IMG/VR virus record: IMGVR_UViG_3300032261_000561
Strand: one strand, 5' to 3'
Source: a virus
DNA: 64,000 nt
Below the pieces are notes generated by a model. That model did no database searches. It worked only from the letters and a program-made list of their open reading frames with translations, and was not told where the DNA came from. Shown piece after piece: positions 24,676-57,370 of this stretch. The translations under genes were made by a program, and so were the position numbers. Positions within the stretch are counted from its first letter, which is position 1, and every line of letters begins with the position of its first letter.

Positions 24676-25494
24676 TCATCGGCCTATCCTCGCCAGGCAC
24701 TGCGGATGTCCTCTCTCGCTGCTCGACTCGGGGTTGGAGGCCCAGCGCCACGCCTCGGCGGGCCCGTTGACGGTGCCGTCGTTGATCTCCTGGTGGCACC
24801 CGATGCAGACCTTGGAACCCAACGAGGGCACGCCCGCCTCGATTTTCTGTGGACCCAGGTACTCGCCGTGGCGGGTGTCTTCGAAGACGATGTTGCCGCC
24901 GCCGCCCGGGCGGAAATCGCGGGAGGATCCCTGCTGGGGGCCCAGCGGCACGCCCCAACCCGGGTTAGGGGCGGGGGTGTCGCCCACATGAATGGTGGTG
25001 CCCGGCTTGGCGTCGGCGCCGCCACCGGCCGCCCCATAGGTGGGCAGGGGCTCGCCGGTGCCCGCCTGCACGAACGTCTCGGTGGAACCCACACCCGCAC
25101 CGCCGGGTCCGACGATGGCGATCGGATTGCCTTCGCCGTCACGCAGGATGTTGTCGGCGGGGGCGCCGCCACCCATCGTCACGGGTGGCTGGCGGATCCC
25201 GTAATCGGGCTGTTGGCCGGAACCACCGCCGCCCATGTGCATGCCGGTCATGCGGGCACGGATCTCGGCGGCCGTCTCCCCGCGCTGTCCCTGGTGGATG
25301 GTGGTCACCCCGTCGGGGGCGGTACTGGTCACCTTGGTGGCGCACAGATCGCAACGGATCGAGCCGTCAGCCCCCCACAGCCAGCCGAACGGTTTGTACC
25401 CGGCCACTGACCGCGAAATGTCGTCGACATCGACGCGGCGCACGGTGGCGCACGATTTGCAACGCCAGTCAATGCTGATGGATTCCATAATCAT
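24676..25494 (-). CDS. Gly-rich hypothetical protein with CxxC motifs
   Basis: CKSC, CDLC, CIGC flanking a low-complexity Gly/Pro core. Confidence 0.65.
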   Translation of the reverse strand: MIMESISIDWRCKSCATVRRVDVDDISRSVAGYKPFGWLWGADGSIRCDLCATKVTSTAPDGVTTIHQGQRGETAAEIRARMTGMHMGGGGSGQQPDYGIRQPPVTMGGGAPADNILRDGEGNPIAIVGPGGAGVGSTETFVQAGTGEPLPTYGAAGGGADAKPGTTIHVGDTPAPNPGWGVPLGPQQGSSRDFRPGGGGNIVFEDTRHGEYLGPQKIEAGVPSLGSKVCIGCHQEINDGTVNGPAEAWRWASNPESSSERGHPQCLARIGR

Positions 25495-26819
25495 TTTGTG
25501 TCTCCCGCTAAAAGTATTTTACGCTGCCATTCCAGAAACCGCTGGTCATCGGCGAATTTATGGGCGCCGAATCTCGCATTGAATTTCGCCACCTGCCCCC
25601 AGGTCAATTCTTCGTGGTCGGGCGCCCGATTCAGGGTCTCCGAACGCAAATGCTCCACCACCGAGGACGGCACCAGCATGGGCGCGGTGCCGTGCGCCCG
25701 CGCTTGCTCCACCACGACGTCATCGGAGCACCAGCCGGTGAAACCCTCGTCGAAGCCGCCGATCTCGTGCCAGAACTGGCGGCTGACCATGAAACACCAA
25801 CCTGACAGATGGGCGCCGGTGGTGTAGCCGGTGGTGTTCTCGGTGATGTCCTGCTGGCGCTCGTCGCCGGGGCATTTGGGGCTCATCACCGGGTGATCGG
25901 CGGCAAGCAGCTGGTGCAGCCAGCCGTCGCGGAAAATCAGATCGTTGTTGGCCACCATGATCCACGGGGCGAAACCCAGCGCCGCGCCCCGGTTGGCGAA
26001 GTGGTTGTAGTTGAACTCGTCGGAGGTGTACACGGTCTGGGCGTGCTGGTAGCGCACGCCTTCGCATTGCTCGATCACCACGATGTGCACCGGCAGCGAG
26101 TTGGCGCCGGAGATGCAGGTGTTGATGGTGGTCTGGGTCATCGCCTTCATCTTGGGGGTCTCGGCCTTGGAGCTGATCACCACATCGACCAACGGTGGGA
26201 TGTTGCGCATCCGCAGCGAGCCCGGCCGGGGGATCTGCGTCTCGGTGGTGTGCGGGGACCAATCGTAGAAGTACAGCACCTTAGGGATGTGGTGCTCGCT
26301 GGACAGGTGCGGCCGGATCAGCTGGCCGTACACCGCGTCCTCGCCGTAGACGACGTTGGGGAAACTGGCCCGCCGCGCGATGCTGCGTTTGACGGCGCAG
26401 ATGTGGTTGGGCAGCCGCTCATATTTATTGGGCAAGTTGCGGTTCTCCTGGAAACGAATGGAGTACTCGCACGGCTTGGGCTCCTCGCCATTCATGGAGA
26501 CTTCGACCAGAAATGTGATGACATCGGCCGGATCGACGTCGATGGCGCGCAGCAGCTCGGCGAACATATCCGGCGCAATGCGATCGTCGTCGTCGATGAA
26601 TTGCACATAGCGGCCTTGGGCCATATCGATCATGACATTGCGTTTCTCGCCCAGCATCATAGTTTTGGTGTCCGTCAACATCAGTATTTCCAGCCGAGCC
26701 TGATCCTGCTCGGGCAGGCTGTGGTACTGGGTCCAGAGCTGCTCTTGGATGGCTAGCCCGAAGGTGTTCCAGCGGGTGTGGGTTGAGCACACCAAGATAG
26801 AGAGATCGATGCCGCTCAT
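25491..26819 (-). CDS. tandem GT2 (GT-A fold) glycosyltransferase
   Basis: GEKRN..IDMAQGRYVQFIDDDD and GED in domain 1; FNY..N.GA, NND, IGGFDE.F..W.SDD in domain 2. Confidence 0.9.
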   Translation of the reverse strand: MSGIDLSILVCSTHTRWNTFGLAIQEQLWTQYHSLPEQDQARLEILMLTDTKTMMLGEKRNVMIDMAQGRYVQFIDDDDRIAPDMFAELLRAIDVDPADVITFLVEVSMNGEEPKPCEYSIRFQENRNLPNKYERLPNHICAVKRSIARRASFPNVVYGEDAVYGQLIRPHLSSEHHIPKVLYFYDWSPHTTETQIPRPGSLRMRNIPPLVDVVISSKAETPKMKAMTQTTINTCISGANSLPVHIVVIEQCEGVRYQHAQTVYTSDEFNYNHFANRGAALGFAPWIMVANNDLIFRDGWLHQLLAADHPVMSPKCPGDERQQDITENTTGYTTGAHLSGWCFMVSRQFWHEIGGFDEGFTGWCSDDVVVEQARAHGTAPMLVPSSVVEHLRSETLNRAPDHEELTWGQVAKFNARFGAHKFADDQRFLEWQRKILLAGDTK

Positions 26820-42810: not shown

Positions 42811-43839
42811 TCAATTTCCCGGTGCGATCGACGCTACCACGCAGGTAAACAGTGCGAAAGAGTTTCCGGACGTGGGTTTCCAGAATCTGGGGATGCGCAC
42901 GATGTTGCCCATGTCCGACCACGTGGGCCTGCGGTCATTGGTCAGCTGCACTCTGATCGCTCGGGTGTAGCGGAACATCGGAGCCAGCGCCATAAGGTGG
43001 AAATACCACAGCTGGGCGACAAGCCGGTCGGTGTAGTGCTCGCCCTCGGAGAACCAATCCCAGTGGTCGTTGCCCGACGCGGTGTCGGCAGCGCGCATAG
43101 CCTGGGAGCGGTCCTGGGCAAAGACCCCACCGTCGCCTATCCGGCCGTCGGTGCGCCCCAGATCGTTGATGATCTCCTCGTCGGGCTGCTCGACGCGCTT
43201 GAAGAACGGGCTGAGGTCCTCGGCGTTCATCGACATCACGATCGGGTTGTCGGCCTCGATCTTCTTGCGGATCCGGCTGTCCACCCACTTCTCGCCCGAG
43301 CGCAGGTTGTCGTAACGCTCCCGGCGCTGGGGGTTGAGCAGCACCCTGGCGATCTCGCGCAGGTACATGAACTCCTCGGTGTCGGGCGCCCAGCCGGTGT
43401 CGGGGTGGGTGCGCCGGTACTTGGTGGCCAGCGCCTTGCGGATCTCGGCCTCGGTGGCATCGGGGCGCACGCCCAGCAGCCGGTAGTAACCGTTGGCATC
43501 CAAGCCGATCTTGCGGGGGATGCGCATCAGCGCCCGCGCGCAGCTGGGGTAACCCACGCCGGGACAGTGGTCGCGCGAGCTGAAGAATTCTTCCGCGCGC
43601 TGACTGGCCACCCAGACCGGGGTGGCGGGCAGGTTCTCTGGCTCGATGAAGTCGGGCCCGTAGACGTCCCACGGCGCCTCGGGCTCGGGACCAATACCGA
43701 GGGCCGCCTGGATGCTGTCGCGGCCGGGGTGACCCACCAGGGAGCGGTACAGGTCGTTGGCGCTGCTGGGGTGGCGCAGAAAGCGATCGCCGTCATCGGT
43801 CCCCAGAATCTCGTGGATGTGGGGGATCCGGCCCATCAA
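42811..43839 (-). CDS. J-domain (DnaJ-like) protein
   Basis: YYRLLGV.PDAT..EIRKA......HPD ... L.NP.RR..YD. Confidence 0.9.
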   Translation of the reverse strand: MMGRIPHIHEILGTDDGDRFLRHPSSANDLYRSLVGHPGRDSIQAALGIGPEPEAPWDVYGPDFIEPENLPATPVWVASQRAEEFFSSRDHCPGVGYPSCARALMRIPRKIGLDANGYYRLLGVRPDATEAEIRKALATKYRRTHPDTGWAPDTEEFMYLREIARVLLNPQRRERYDNLRSGEKWVDSRIRKKIEADNPIVMSMNAEDLSPFFKRVEQPDEEIINDLGRTDGRIGDGGVFAQDRSQAMRAADTASGNDHWDWFSEGEHYTDRLVAQLWYFHLMALAPMFRYTRAIRVQLTNDRRPTWSDMGNIVRIPRFWKPTSGNSFALFTCVVASIAPGN

Positions 43840-50090: not shown

Positions 50091-50468
50091 TCAAGGACTT
50101 CCATTGTGTGTCTCCTCTGCTTGGCGCTGCAGCTCGTCGATCTTGAGCAGCGTCACGTCCTCCACCAGTCGGCGTTCGACCGGCGTAAGATCCTCCATCA
50201 TCTCCTGGCCGTAGACCCAGTGTTCGGCCAGCACCGCCAGCATCTGAGCCAGCAGATACGCCGGAAACCGGCCCTGCCGGGCCTCGACGAACTGCACCGA
50301 GCGCCGCAATGCCTCGCCGGGGGTGAGCAGCCTGCCGTGCAGAACCAGCTGCCCCTCGGCGCCCTCCACCCAGTCCTCCAAGAACGTCAGGAAAGCCACG
50401 CTGATCTCGCCGCCGCCAGCCAGCGCCGCCCGGCGCCCCTGCCAGCTGTCGGTGTCACGCGTCTTCAC
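50091..50468 (-). CDS. hypothetical protein
   Basis: ORF track. Confidence 0.65.
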   Translation of the reverse strand: MKTRDTDSWQGRRAALAGGGEISVAFLTFLEDWVEGAEGQLVLHGRLLTPGEALRRSVQFVEARQGRFPAYLLAQMLAVLAEHWVYGQEMMEDLTPVERRLVEDVTLLKIDELQRQAEETHNGSP

Positions 50469-52788: not shown

Positions 52789-54267
52789 TTACCAGCTCAG
52801 CACCATGCCGCCCTCGTCCTCCTCGGGCCCGGCGGTGTCCACCAGGTCGTCGATCCAGGACACCGCCGCGCAGTCCAGCACCTCCTTGGCTCGGGTGACC
52901 GCCACGTAGCCGATCATTGCCTCGGCCTCCGAGATGGTCGGCGTCTCGCCGTCCTCGGTGACGCGCGGGGCGAAGAAGTCCCCGGCCACCTTGACCGTCT
53001 CCCACTGCCGACCCTTGCTCTTGTGCGCGGTGGAGACGATCACGTCGGCGTCGTCCTCGTTGCGGGAGAGTGCGTTGGTGGCTTCCAGGATCCGCTCGAT
53101 GCCATGCTCCTCGATCAGCTTGATCAGCGGCAGCAGGTCGCGGCCCCCCTCCTCCTCGGTGGCGTAGCGCACCACCGAGTCCCAGTCGGGGAAGGCGTAC
53201 AGCTCGGGGTGGTTGGTGGTCTTGCCTTCCCGCAAGTCCCCCGCCGCCCGAGCCAGCCTGCTCAATGCGTCACCGCCGCCCACCAAGGACACCCGACGGC
53301 CCGAGTCCAGCTCGCCCAGCACGTGGCCCATGGCGCCCGCATTCGTGCGGCACAGGATCGCCTTGGGCTTCTCCAAGGTGTCCACCACCGAGTCCATGTG
53401 CGGGTTGCCGATCAGTTCCAGCGGGGTGTGCAGCTGGTGCAGCCATTTGTTGGCCTCGTCCGCGATCGCCTGCCCGAACCGCCAGGACTGCGCCAGATAG
53501 AGCTGACGGGCGTTCTTCCAGCCGCCCAGCGCATCGACCGCCCCGCGCCAGGCATACATCTGCTGGCACGAGTCCCCCACGATGATCTGCTGGGCGTTCT
53601 GATCGCTGATCAGCTTGGCCAGCACCGGGTTGGCGTCCTGCGCCTCATCGAAGTAGATGGTGTAGTAGGGCAGCTCCGGCCGGGTCAACGCCCACATCTT
53701 CAGATAGTGATCGTGCTCGAACGGCATCCAGCCGCTGCGGTCGTTGACGTCGGCCCACCAGCGCTGGGCCAGTGGCAGCACGTTGGCCACCAGGACGGCG
53801 TGGTCGGCCCCGATGATCCCGTTCTGCGGTGGGACGTGGCGGGCGGTGATCTCGTCGTCGGCGCTGTAGCAGAACCGGCGCACCGTGTCCCCGGCGATAC
53901 GCGCCAGGTGGCTGGACTTCACCATGACGTCGCGGCCTAATCGCAGGTTGCGCAGCCCCATCCGTTTGGCCACCTCCCAGCTCGGCTCGCGCTTGCCCGA
54001 GATCCGGTGCCGGAAGTCCTTGCCCACCGCCCCGTAGGCCAGCCCGTGGCTGGTCTTGCAGGTGACGTGCCCGGGGAACTTGCCCGAGGCATCCAGCTGG
54101 ATCGGCTTGTTGTAGGCCACGTACAGGCTGCGTTTCGGCAGCTGCTCGGCCACCATCACCAGGGTGGACGTCTTGCCCGTCCCGGCGCCCGCCTGCACGA
54201 CCAGGTTGTCCCCGCTCAGGGCCCCGTCGATGACCGCCTGCTGTTCGGCGGTCGGTGGGTATTCCAT
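52789..54267 (-). CDS. UvrD/Rep-like SF1 helicase
   Basis: AGAGTGKT, DEAQD, VGD..Q..Y.WRGA, SWRFG, STAHKSKG.QW, YVAVTRA. Confidence 0.95.
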   Translation of the reverse strand: MEYPPTAEQQAVIDGALSGDNLVVQAGAGTGKTSTLVMVAEQLPKRSLYVAYNKPIQLDASGKFPGHVTCKTSHGLAYGAVGKDFRHRISGKREPSWEVAKRMGLRNLRLGRDVMVKSSHLARIAGDTVRRFCYSADDEITARHVPPQNGIIGADHAVLVANVLPLAQRWWADVNDRSGWMPFEHDHYLKMWALTRPELPYYTIYFDEAQDANPVLAKLISDQNAQQIIVGDSCQQMYAWRGAVDALGGWKNARQLYLAQSWRFGQAIADEANKWLHQLHTPLELIGNPHMDSVVDTLEKPKAILCRTNAGAMGHVLGELDSGRRVSLVGGGDALSRLARAAGDLREGKTTNHPELYAFPDWDSVVRYATEEEGGRDLLPLIKLIEEHGIERILEATNALSRNEDDADVIVSTAHKSKGRQWETVKVAGDFFAPRVTEDGETPTISEAEAMIGYVAVTRAKEVLDCAAVSWIDDLVDTAGPEEDEGGMVLSW

Positions 54268-54325: not shown

Positions 54326-54922
54326 TCACATCCACTCGGGGCGTATCCGACGCCACCGCTCCACTGTTCCCTGAGGCACCGACCGTTGATATCCCTGACG
54401 GTGCAACACAGACTTGGATATCCCGAACTCCACCACCACCTCGGCCAGCCTGATCAGTGGCTGGGGATGCAGATTCAGCTCGGGGCGCGGCGCCGGGGCG
54501 GGTTTGTCGCTAACGATGACTGGCTGCAGGGTGGGTGGCTCGGGCTTGGGTTGGCGACGACGCGCGGGACGCTGTCCTTTCGGCCTGGCCCGTCGGGGAG
54601 TCAGGTTGGCGCCGTAAAACCGCAGGAACGTCCTCGTCGCTCGGGTCAGCGTCCAACCCTCGTTCTCCTTGTGCAGCTTGTGCACGAGGTCGTGACAACG
54701 CTGACACAGCGGAACCAGATCGGAGTCCAACTCAGCTCCCATCCGCCGGTAGGTGTGGTGATGCAGGTGGATGTCGATGACGCTCCCGCACGCCTGGCAC
54801 TGCCTCTTGTGATTGGCATAGAAGGCTGCCTTCCTGCGCTCCCAGCTGGTCGAATTGATGTACTGGGCGTATTCGTCTTTGCTGCGCCTTCTACGGGGCT
54901 CTGAGCGGGTTTGCTGGGGAAT
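54326..54922 (-). CDS. HNH endonuclease with putative ATT start and C-terminal extension
   Basis: YAQYINS.SW.RRK...CQAC...HLHHHTY.R.GAE..DLVPLCQRCH...H; frame is open to a TAG just above an AGGAG-N7-ATT. Confidence 0.8.
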   Translation of the reverse strand: MPQQTRSEPRRRRSKDEYAQYINSTSWERRKAAFYANHKRQCQACGSVIDIHLHHHTYRRMGAELDSDLVPLCQRCHDLVHKLHKENEGWTLTRATRTFLRFYGANLTPRRARPKGQRPARRRQPKPEPPTLQPVIVSDKPAPAPRPELNLHPQPLIRLAEVVVEFGISKSVLHRQGYQRSVPQGTVERWRRIRPEWM

Positions 54923-54924
54923 TG

Positions 54925-55310
54925 GAGTTCTCCTGGGTCTTAGGGCCTACTTCGGGCCTTGCCTCGGTGACCCCCCAGGCGACTGACCCCCATTTGCCAT
55001 CTCCGGTACTGTCACACCACCTCTGGCCCCCTGTCTTGGAGTGACAGAGAGCTGATACGCATTGACCTGAGGCTTGCTCTGCAGCTGCGAGCTTCGGGTA
55101 CCCGGCCCGGCCCGGGATTTCCTCGTAGGAGACTCAGTACCGGGAGCCGTGTCAGGTACTCCGGATACGGAACGGGAAGGGAGAGCGGGTTTTTCGGCGG
55201 GTCTCCCCGTAAGCGCCGGTAGGAGGGGCAGTGGCAGCTGCAACAATTACCATCCGGTAACCGGGAGCGCAACCCCGTCCAACATGTTGGGTGAACTGGT
55301 TGCACTACCC
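54925..55310 (-). ncRNA. candidate large structured RNA upstream of the HNH gene
   Basis: No credible ORF; many helices (55298-310/55263-274, 55234-243/55079-088, 55135-143/55003-011, 55041-047/55009-015). Confidence 0.45.
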
Positions 55311-55334
55311 CCCAGATGTAGAGATACTCTCAGA

Positions 55335-55411
55335 TACGCACAGAGATGCGTGGAGACAGTGGCAACTTCTCCGAAGGGCCCCGGCACATGGGAGCCGGGG
55401 CTCTTTTCTTT
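55335..55411 (+). ncRNA. candidate ~77-nt counter-transcribed sRNA with three hairpins
   Basis: TTGCAC-N17-GATACT promoter (55300-55328); hairpins ACGCA/TGCGT and GGAGA/TCTCC, then an intrinsic terminator. Confidence 0.55.
55376..55411 (+). terminator. intrinsic terminator
   Basis: GGGCCCCGGC-N8-GCCGGGGCTC-TTTTCTTT. Confidence 0.8.
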
Positions 55412-55444
55412 CCACAAGTCGTCCAATTTTCCTACAATGAGCTG

Positions 55445-57370
55445 GTGACACACGCGACGGTTGAGTCGACCATCGAACTTTTGGCCAGCGACCCCGAGGT
55501 CGACCTGGACACCGTCGTGTTGGTCAGCGAGTCCACCGCCTACTCGGGCTGCCTGCGTTTCGAACCGTTCGACGGGGACCGGCAGGGCTTCTTCCAGCGC
55601 TACGGCTTGGAGGAGAACTGGATCAGCCGGTTCCTGGTGCTCAACGAGCACCACAACCTGCGCCATTTCATCCGCCAGCTGCTCGACGACAGCTGGCTGC
55701 TGGTGTATGACCCGTCGGCGGATCCGATCCTAGCCGACTTCGAGCGCTGGGCGGCGCCGCTGGACGTGCAGGGCTTCACCTGCCCGCACCACGGGCAGCT
55801 GCGGCCCTATCAGACCTTCGGGATTCAGCGGGCGCTGGAACGGAACGAGGCTCAGAAGGCCTCTGAGCGCCTCACGGTGCCCGGGTGGTGTGCCGGTGCC
55901 GGGAAGAGCCTGTTCGCCTGCGCAGGGGCTCAGGAGCTGGCCAACAGGGGCCTTGTGGACGTGGTGCTAGCTTTCACCCTGATGCGCCACAAAGACAACC
56001 TGCGGGCGTTCTTCGCCGACACCACCGAGCTGAAAGCCGTTGTGGTGGACGGGACTAAAGACCGGCGCCGCAAGCTCTACGCCAGCGAGCACGACGTGTT
56101 CGTGGTCAACTACGACAAACCGCGCTTCGACTTCGAGGAACTGTCCGAGCTGACCGCCGGAAAGCGTGTGCTGTTCGTGCTCGACGAGGTGCAGAAGGTG
56201 CTTACCGCCGAGACCAAGACCCAGGCCCGCAAGGCGCTCGATCAGCTGATCAAGGGCTGCCGGGCCACCATCTGGCCGATGACTGCCTCCATTGTGGGCT
56301 CCAATCCGCTACGCTACCGCTCGCTGTTCGCCTTGAGTCAAGCTCGGGACAACCCGCTGGGCAGCCGGGCGGACTTCGAGGAGCGCTACCTGGAACGCGA
56401 CAACTGGGGCAACCCGAAGAAGCGCACCTACCAGCGCACCACCCGCCACGGCGGGTCGTTCACCGTCACCGACTACGACTGGGATTTGGCCGCGTTGCAT
56501 GAGGTGCGCCACCGGGTGGCCGACCGGGTGCAGAACGCGCGTAAAGGCGATCCCGGTGTGCGCGAATACTTCCCGCCGCTGCAAGTGGAGTTCATCCCGA
56601 TCCAGATGAGTCCCGAGGACCGCCAGCTGATCGACGAGATCGAGTACCTGGCCCGCATCGCCAAGCGTGAGGGGGAGTCGTTGACGTCCTACGCGCTGCT
56701 GCAGCGGTACGTGTGCAACACGCCGGAAGCGTTGGCGCACTCCATCTCACCGCTGGCGCGGGTGCTGATGGAGGAATACCCCCGGCTGATCACCAGCGCC
56801 AACTCCGCGAAGATGGAGTACTTCCTCGACCAGGTGGAATCGATTGCCGACGCCGGAGATAAATGCGTCGCTTTCACCAAATGGACCAATTTGGGCTTGC
56901 ATATTTTGAGTCGTGAGCTGGACAAGCGCAAGGTGAAGCATGTGGTGCACTACGGCACCGGCCAGACCGCCAAGGAGTCCCAGCGGGCCCAGGACTGTTT
57001 CAAGGCCGATGCCGAGATCACGTTGTTCCTGTCCAGCGACGCCGGGGCGTATGGCCTCAACATGCAGGAGGCCAAGTACTGCATCCAGTACGAATGCCCG
57101 TACAGCTACGACGATTTCCAGCAGCGGATCAACCGGATCCACCGCACCGACTCCCAGCTGGCCGGGCTGACCGCGTACATCTATGTGACCGAGAACTCGA
57201 TCGAGGAGCGCATCGCCGGGATCTGCGAGTATCGGCGCCAGCTGGCCGAGGCCACGCTGGGCACGAGTGAAGTCGTCTCGTTACCTGAGATCGCCACCCG
57301 AGACGAGATATCGAACGCTGATTATTTACTTTTCGGAGATGACCGTGATTTTTGGAAACGAGTGACATGA
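55445..57370 (+). CDS. SNF2-like SF2 helicase, leaderless
   Basis: LRPYQ, GAGKS, VNYD, LDEVQ, SAK, AG.YGLNMQ.A, QRINRIHR; TACAAT -10 six nt before GTG. Confidence 0.9.
   Translation: MTHATVESTIELLASDPEVDLDTVVLVSESTAYSGCLRFEPFDGDRQGFFQRYGLEENWISRFLVLNEHHNLRHFIRQLLDDSWLLVYDPSADPILADFERWAAPLDVQGFTCPHHGQLRPYQTFGIQRALERNEAQKASERLTVPGWCAGAGKSLFACAGAQELANRGLVDVVLAFTLMRHKDNLRAFFADTTELKAVVVDGTKDRRRKLYASEHDVFVVNYDKPRFDFEELSELTAGKRVLFVLDEVQKVLTAETKTQARKALDQLIKGCRATIWPMTASIVGSNPLRYRSLFALSQARDNPLGSRADFEERYLERDNWGNPKKRTYQRTTRHGGSFTVTDYDWDLAALHEVRHRVADRVQNARKGDPGVREYFPPLQVEFIPIQMSPEDRQLIDEIEYLARIAKREGESLTSYALLQRYVCNTPEALAHSISPLARVLMEEYPRLITSANSAKMEYFLDQVESIADAGDKCVAFTKWTNLGLHILSRELDKRKVKHVVHYGTGQTAKESQRAQDCFKADAEITLFLSSDAGAYGLNMQEAKYCIQYECPYSYDDFQQRINRIHRTDSQLAGLTAYIYVTENSIEERIAGICEYRRQLAEATLGTSEVVSLPEIATRDEISNADYLLFGDDRDFWKRVT

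Follow-up and report, generated by a model that had tools for sequence, protein, structure and literature searches.

The window analysed here is a 64,000-nucleotide (nt) stretch of the IMG/VR virus record IMGVR_UViG_3300032261_000561, a 125.7-kb record that is 84% complete. Within it, an HNH endonuclease gene on the minus strand (54326–54922) and a divergent SNF2-type helicase gene on the plus strand (55445–57370) are separated by ~520 nt between their start codons (54923–55444), in which we found no conserved open reading frame (ORF). A preliminary description of this DNA, made from its sequence, had placed ~390 nt free of credible ORFs here; the gap is larger than that, and the in-frame “ORFs” upstream of the HNH gene shift frame or carry stops in homologous loci. 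On the minus strand the gap holds a conserved RNA core of ~260 nt (54966–55222), delimited with MAFFT and nhmmer and recognized by a family profile and by covariation, which we designate class-1, or Et2Brutus-type, origin (ori) RNA. Our favored reading, which we hold with reasonable confidence, is that this element belongs to the Et2Brutus-type family of RNA-based replication origins and acts in cis to initiate replication, the adjacent HNH gene being separate and optional.

Members of the RNA family were collected by four routes, namely metagenome loci guided by proteins, a scan of IMG/VR for the RNA motif, look-ups of HNH homologues, and cultured phages, and all searches for family members used sequence profiles. 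The family profile recovered the window and 16 other distinct loci (nhmmer, E = 1e-25 to 1e-85). The family is virus-only: each of the 17 distinct copies lies in a phage, two motif searches across 185,579 prokaryote genomes returned only chance matches, and plasmids returned none. The first motif scans, run with GGCYAGAGGTGGTGYGAC, likewise gave chance matches only, and a protein-pattern scan of IMG/VR with a single HNH or SNF2 sequence gave no matches. Rfam 15 held no relevant match in E-value scans of 3 kb of the window and of a 421-nt slice, in a gathering-threshold scan of the whole window, or in the relatives; for the 421-nt query and the relatives there was no match even at E ≤ 10.

We next examined whether the conservation of this core reflects a common fold. 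The alignment used throughout, A6, comprises 17 distinct sequences and omits a partial 18th copy (L149). An RNAalifold consensus on A6 contains 46 base pairs, 25 of which show compensatory changes on both sides. On this structure 91.9% of cells were paired compared with 80.0% in column shuffles, none of 500 shuffles reaching the observed value, and the covariation score was 0.49 compared with 0.25 in shuffles; sliding the 3′ partners along the alignment left 37–52% of cells paired. These statistics are biased in favor of the structure, as it was derived from the same alignment that tests it. Helix H2, described below, was found independently in each of 13 sequences despite their unrelated sequences. 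Folded as a single sequence, the window RNA was no more stable than its shuffles (z = −0.21), and RNAduplex scans between distant segments were too promiscuous to be informative. The covariation check that the preliminary description had proposed for the DNA upstream of HNH homologues thus yielded both conservation and covariation, and its claim of a structured non-coding RNA is upheld by the 17 loci and their compensatory pairs.

The same alignment identifies the folded strand and bears on the possibility that the region encodes protein. G-U cells outnumbered A-C cells by 111 to 11, from which we conclude that it is the HNH-sense strand that folds. The window does contain open frames of 97–124 aa, and a coding reading would assign 97–99-aa ORFs to 54947–55246 and 55012–55305, or would join the 99-aa frame, which is in phase with the HNH gene across a single TAG, to the nuclease by read-through. 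Translations upstream of the HNH gene in homologous loci yield “similar peptides” that occur in differing frames and are broken by stops, so that conservation is at the level of nucleotides rather than protein; the compensatory changes and the G-U bias fit an RNA, homologous HNH proteins start at their QQT motif, and a stop codon introduced into Et2Brutus gene 32, which overlies the RNA on the opposite strand, leaves replication intact. We therefore regard a protein-coding function as very improbable.

The modeled fold comprises ten or more helices, of which two are long-range, arranged from 5′ to 3′ as H1, a C-rich strand, H2, H3, H4, H5, H6, the motif AGAGGUGGUG and twin UGGGRGGUC boxes (all on the minus strand, paired segments being given 5′ to 3′). 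The 5′ hairpin H1 (55195–55218) pairs CGGCG (55218–55214) with CGCCG (55199–55195); its pairs are kept in 95.6% of cells while the sequence changes to AACG/CGUU in L010 and L011 and to CACGGCU/AGCCGUG in Et2Brutus. H2 (55137–55168) joins GUAUCCGG (55168–55161) to CCGGUAC (55143–55137) around the conserved loop GUACCUGACACGG (55159–55147), which carries the conserved loop motif GUACCUNAUACGG; in A6 it occupies columns 70–73 and 101–104, and three of its four pairs are compensatory. The long-range helix H3 pairs GUCUCC (55133–55128) with GGAGAU (55004–54999), corresponding to columns 109–114 and 256–261, and five of its six pairs change on both sides (at one pair, UA in eight sequences and CG in eight). 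H4 (55100–55117) is a hairpin of UCCCGG with CCGGGU, again with three of four pairs compensatory. Sequences resembling RNase P in L009 (GACAGAACCGGG and AAAUCCUGG) had suggested an RNase P-like RNA; we rejected this candidate because the putative P4 5′ strand is the covarying hairpin H4 and the Rfam RNase P models gave no match. The hairpin H5 (55064–55099) has a CUGCAG-type apex and outer ACC/GGU pairs; all five of its inner pairs change on both sides, and 78.8% of its cells are paired. H6 (55026–55053), formed by AGCUCUCUGUC and GACAGGGGGC, has nine pairs with 95.4% of cells paired, six of them compensatory, together with a conserved U-G pair.

Downstream of these hairpins lies the nearly invariant AGAGGUGGUG (55015–55024), in which all changes are one-sided and compatible with pairing. 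Its GGUG (55018–55015) is predicted to pair with UACC at 55100–55097, the UACC in the H2 loop being a predicted alternative partner. A further candidate, in which GUACC of the H2 loop would pair with a downstream GGUAC, was discarded as the pairing fails in L053 and the L084 group. The twin UGGG(R)GGUC boxes (54969–54995) enclose between them a small helix, H8, that is 98% paired, and the second box (54976–54970) pairs with the C-rich strand at 55185–55179 to form the helix LR1, which closes the domain (88% paired, with C-to-U changes only).

Several helices of the preliminary description do not belong to this conserved fold. Its 9-bp stem (55135–55143 with 55003–55011) is fully paired in the window but retains only one to seven of nine pairs in relatives, and its stem of 55041–55047 with 55009–55015 falls from seven of seven pairs in the window to between two and six elsewhere. 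The 10-bp stem of 55234–55243 with 55079–55088 results from pairing between two copies of the palindrome GCAGCUGC; the copy that forms its 5′ arm belongs to the unconserved leader. The crossing long-range stems, drawn there as a pseudoknot or switch, are not the conserved long-range helices. Two other elements, the hairpin at 55310–55263 and the TTACC/GGTAA dyad at 55261–55244, do exist, but upstream of the conserved core. Both fall in an unconserved leader or control region (55223–55444, minus strand), whose small hairpins differ in every relative. This region also contains a GC-rich hairpin (~55375–55413); all members of the family have a counterpart ~100–150 nt 5′ of the core, which holds CUGGCAGG in its loop in L081, L085 and the cluster A phages. 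Read on the plus strand, 55300–55413 presents this hairpin (stem ~55375–55405) followed by a T-run and resembles an intrinsic terminator opposite the variable leader of the RNA.

The interpretation of the RNA follows from its homology to a defined phage origin. A profile built from the window and its metagenomic relatives only matched the cultured mycobacteriophages Mulciber and Et2Brutus (nhmmer, E = 4.3e-25 and 8.7e-25), in Et2Brutus at 25538–25774, on the strand opposite parA and within the gap between gene 31 and parA (25381–26052). By blastn, the L081 and L084 copies matched 26 cultured mycobacteriophages, including Et2Brutus and Mulciber, with 72–75% identity over 83% of the query. The Et2Brutus segment 25381–26052 alone supports autonomous replication in M. 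smegmatis and needs no phage protein product (Wetzel et al. 2020, mBio, PMC7157519). A non-coding RNA transcribed away from parA was marked in this segment, and deletion of the part containing ORF 32 (25542–25706) abolishes replication while a stop codon in ORF 32 does not, from which the authors concluded that “non-RepA” phages initiate replication by an RNA, citing ColE1 as precedent (PMC7157519). That work described neither a secondary structure nor relatives outside cluster A (PMC7157519). Given this homology, a replication-initiator or primer RNA is the best of the three roles that the preliminary description had offered for the RNA and HNH module (ribonucleoprotein nuclease, mobile element or replication-primer RNA). 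The RNA does look uncharacterised, as labeled there; it is of the same family as the known Et2Brutus origin RNA.

The window RNA and the origin of Et2Brutus, a subcluster A11 phage, have in common the motifs GUACCUNAUACGG, AGAGGUGGUG and AAUGGG as well as helices H1, H2, H4, H5 and H6, and both are non-coding and oriented away from a neighboring divergent gene. Their settings differ: the window RNA lies between SNF2 and UvrD helicase genes in a 125-kb soil phage and is followed by an HNH gene, whereas Et2Brutus is a 52-kb temperate phage whose RNA lies beside parABS, and Et2Brutus-like phages have no HNH gene at the site. The link to parABS is a contextual feature of the origin and not a mechanistic one. 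A second class of ori RNAs, represented by the other origins tested in that study (those of RedRock-like phages such as AnnaL29, and of Alma, LadyBird and Gladiator), has the same role and position and has in common with Et2Brutus only a ~100-nt upstream element and the GC-rich hairpin with the CUGGCAGG loop, but the RNA body is unrelated in sequence and the class-1 profile gives no match to it. Three annotated “hypothetical protein” ORFs, Et2Brutus gene 32 (25542–25706), Mulciber gp76 and JustASigh gene 65 (43349–43630), lie across the structured RNA and probably do not represent genes.

We propose the following mechanism. The RNA would be transcribed leftward from the divergent SNF2/HNH intergenic region and would initiate phage DNA replication in cis, by serving as a primer or by forming an R-loop, in a mode analogous to that of ColE1 RNA II. 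In the ColE1 replicon, a primer RNA is processed by RNase H and extended by DNA polymerase I, and an antisense RNA is directed against the 5′ part of the primer. As in that system, initiation would proceed without an initiator protein, and transcription of a long, folded RNA would run into the origin. The fold needed for hybrid formation or processing would come from the conserved multi-helix core, and control and specificity from the variable 5′ hairpins together with a possible counter-transcript; the terminator-bearing segment on the opposite strand (55300–55413) could terminate such a counter-transcript, short and similar to RNA I, and, with the variable hairpins, play the part of ColE1 RNA I. 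There is no sequence or Rfam relationship to ColE1, and the comparison is one of analogy. The RNA lies in a replication module, the SNF2 helicase being syntenic with and divergent from the RNA in 11 RNA loci and a UvrD helicase lying nearby in the window. As the record contains no partition or integrase genes and the RNA sits among helicase genes, it may serve lytic replication in this phage.

Several observations weigh against this proposal. The published work establishes a requirement for the Et2Brutus region and the production of an RNA, but not a primer role for that RNA (PMC7157519). Searches of the 125.7-kb record (84% complete) for ParA (AAA_31), ParB_N and tyrosine integrase found none, a setting unlike that of the plasmid-prophages in which the origin was defined, and no family-A DNA polymerase (PolA) or RNase H was found in it either, so that ColE1-like chemistry would need host enzymes. 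GC skew gave no origin signal. The comparisons show conservation, covariation, the folded strand, homology to the Et2Brutus origin and the independence of the RNA from HNH; that the RNA is transcribed in this phage and primes replication, and that the HNH gene homes, are features that we infer.

An alternative view is that the RNA regulates in cis, as the 5′ leader of the leftward early operon (HNH, Tad4 and later genes), perhaps through processive antitermination or translation control, and has no connection with replication in these large phages. Such a leader would fit the absence of lysogeny and partition genes from the phage record, the location of the RNA, always ahead of the first ORF of the operon and just behind −10-like hexamers, and the lack of an intrinsic terminator behind it; three Shine-Dalgarno-like G-rich boxes and a C-rich anti-box also resemble expression platforms. 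It accords poorly with Et2Brutus, where the RNA points to the end of the tail-gene arm, the only annotated ORFs beyond it (genes 32, 31 and 30) are on the opposite strand, and yet the segment is both necessary and sufficient for replication. In the cultured phage JustASigh, moreover, the RNA follows the HNH gene, and in L008 it lies inside an array of transfer RNA (tRNA) and transfer-messenger RNA (tmRNA) genes. We consider a regulatory leader unlikely, although a better candidate than a protein-coding region.

We then asked how closely the RNA is tied to the HNH gene. The preliminary description had presented the two as fused, which is accurate for the window but not for the family. The RNA occurs without HNH in L081, L082, L084 and L085, where Tad4 follows it directly, and in 26 cultured Et2Brutus-like mycobacteriophages; among IMG/VR loci found through the RNA motif alone, one of five has the HNH gene. 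Conversely, L014 and Streptomyces BE phages have HNH relatives but not the RNA, the gene lying between those for SSB and DnaE in the BE phages. In JustASigh the order is inverted: its HNH gene 64 is followed after 12 nt by a full RNA (E = 3e-28), and the product of gene 64 is the best cultured match to the window HNH protein. The pair is also found within the tRNA/tmRNA array of L008 and, in L149, at a locus without SNF2 and Tad4 neighbors; a second contig that encodes the same HNH protein as L149 carries a Phage_L5_Gp78 gene. A function linked to tmRNA or tRNA was rejected because L008 is the only locus in such an array, the other loci having no tRNAs. The arrangement of SNF2, RNA, (HNH) and Tad4 occurs both with and without HNH, so that the search for empty sites suggested earlier found HNH-less loci at the same syntenic site.

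The HNH gene itself (54326–54922, minus strand) encodes 198 aa and likely starts at an ATT codon (54922–54920) behind a Shine-Dalgarno sequence, AGGAGA (54934–54929). Its frame is open from 54946, after an in-frame TAG (54949–54947), and contains no ATG, GTG or TTG before Met 54742. Homologues begin M-x(1-9)-QQT(R)S, and the window reads I-P-QQTRS with AGGAGA six nt upstream; together with the lack of another start codon, this spacing and the homologous N-termini point to the ATT start. Across most HNH-bearing loci the first codons, CAG CAA ACN CGC UCA G (54911–54896), are kept at the nucleotide level, including CAA and UCA, which are rare codons in a genome of ~64% GC; they may represent an RNA- or DNA-level signal overlapping the start of the ORF. 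The protein matched Pfam HNH (E = 3.6e-4), DUF968 weakly, and PHROG HNH endonuclease families. Its HNH motif with zinc-binding cysteines (CQAC...HLHHHTY...N/D...CQRCH) is followed by a basic linker and a small C-terminal domain, and among homologues this last domain is swapped between two helix-turn-helix (HTH)-like types and one SH3-like type. The CxxC-HNH-CxxC architecture without RuvC motifs that was first described is confirmed by the sequence motif and by Pfam.

Such an architecture invites comparison with OMEGA systems (IscB/IshB, HEARO), in which a structured RNA of ~250–300 nt likewise lies directly 5′ of a small HNH protein, and the closest solved HNH domains, albeit with weak E-values, are those of IscB and Cas5-HNH (1.5e-3 and 6e-3). 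We rejected an OMEGA module (IscB/IsrB/IshB with omega-RNA) because there is no HEARO match, no split RuvC and no PLMP motif, the N-terminus reading QQTRS...YINSxxWERRK, and because RNA and protein occur independently, with inverted order in JustASigh. The statement that the protein is not IscB was therefore correct: Pfam finds HNH and the weak DUF968 but no RuvC-type family. A group I intron with an internal homing endonuclease was likewise rejected, as there is no Intron_gpI match and the upstream flank is a divergent promoter region rather than an exon.

The properties of the HNH gene instead fit a separate, optional, free-standing gene of the homing-endonuclease type, in view of its swapped C-terminal domains and sporadic presence at a syntenic site. 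Free-standing phage HNH homing endonucleases, such as the T4 mob genes and I-HmuI-type enzymes, similarly combine an HNH core bearing zinc-binding CxxC pairs with a basic linker and exchangeable C-terminal DNA-binding domains, and they too are present or absent at a syntenic site beside highly conserved sequence. Constant adjacency to one RNA family is unusual among them; homing beside a conserved RNA gene would explain it. We envisage that the HNH gene lodged beside the RNA gene and that its AUU start keeps expression low. “Mobile element” would thus suit the HNH gene but not the RNA.

The association between RNA and HNH also speaks against treating the gene as a bystander. The RNA lay directly upstream in all 12 of the close HNH homologues examined (~47–63% identity), and the link to this HNH clade is tighter than casual insertion predicts. 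The two might accordingly be functional partners, with the nuclease binding or being directed by the origin RNA, or nicking or processing the R-loop or origin DNA, for example to make the priming 3′ end or to cut competitors’ origins, in a two-part module able to lose its protein. The recurrence of the pair in several contexts (phages with SNF2 and Tad4, the L008 array, L149 and, in inverted order, JustASigh) is consistent with this, as are the nucleotide-level conservation of the first HNH codons, rare ones included, the distant likeness to IscB and Cas5-HNH, and a homologue in Weirdo19 that follows a 460-nt gap containing a class-2-ori-like stretch (E = 5e-6). Set against these points, Et2Brutus-type origins need no phage protein to function and the phages that carry them have no HNH gene at the site, searching IMG/VR with the RNA alone gave five loci of which four lack HNH, and the exchange of HTH-like and SH3-like C-terminal domains fits DNA recognition by protein. 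In addition, most HNH-bearing loci were found through HNH, an ascertainment that inflates the association. We therefore judge a functional partnership improbable, if somewhat less so than a regulatory leader, and the ribonucleoprotein nuclease first suggested is disfavored by the phages that carry the RNA without HNH and by origins that replicate without a phage protein. A wider conjecture, to which we give similarly little weight, is that this HNH clade is a dedicated companion of RNA-based phage origins, recognizing the origin RNA, R-loop or gene and processing the primer or destroying rivals’ origins, and that the class-1 RNA is the lytic origin of a group of 100–160-kb soil actinophages.

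Returning to the locus around the putative origin RNA, the genes of relatives are ordered as SNF2 helicase (divergent), RNA, (HNH), Tad4, DUF7242, DUF7229 and aminotransferase. In the window, a UvrD-type helicase gene (52789–54267, minus strand; Pfam UvrD-helicase, AAA_19 and UvrD_C) lies directly downstream of HNH, and a homologue of the Thoeris inhibitor Tad4 is encoded at 50091–50468 on the minus strand (PF25186, E = 1.6e-15); in relatives the Tad4 gene comes directly after the RNA or after HNH. The SNF2-type gene (Pfam Helicase_C, PHROG DNA helicase) likely starts at GTG 55445, since alignments of homologues begin only near residue 17–20 and a TACAAT −10 box has its last base at 55438, 7 nt before this codon, a proximity that suggests a leaderless mRNA. 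The ATG starts called at 55346 and 55388 fall within or beside the GC-rich hairpin. In L084 (identical to L135), the SNF2 gene is broken after Walker A (GSGK) by an insert with Hint-like sequence, probably an intein, such that the tblastn match spans ~2.9 kb rather than 1.8 kb.

Other features vary among relatives. Large tRNA arrays with tmRNA occur in related phages (L008:99-6545, and downstream of SNF2 in L133 and L136), and the L008 array, inside which the RNA-HNH pair lies, also holds a small gene with an RF-1 domain. Some relatives that retain the SNF2/Tad4 synteny have other non-coding segments in the slot of the RNA: L129 has in this position an unrelated stretch of ~330 nt with conserved flanks (1082–1533), and L014 (1826–2420), L133 and L136 have in common a different conserved stretch of 92 nt upstream of SNF2. 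These sequences give the impression that origin RNAs are swapped as cassettes.

To our knowledge, RNA-only phage replication origins have been described in a single study, of cluster A mycobacteriophages. New here are the conservation of the fold, the occurrence of the family in large soil phages and its association with HNH. One of those origin RNAs is part of a conserved family, absent from Rfam, whose fold is complex, and this family reaches far beyond 52-kb plasmid-prophages into large soil phages, where it lies in the replication module beside helicases. Recognizing it exposes “hypothetical protein” ORFs that were mis-annotated across the RNA in records of cultured phages. The covariation model yields precise mutations for testing how an RNA starts DNA replication in Actinobacteria, which could also improve mycobacterial plasmid vectors built on such origins. 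A particular HNH clade keeps settling next to this RNA, and if the two were indeed partners, they would constitute a previously unrecognized origin-linked nuclease module.

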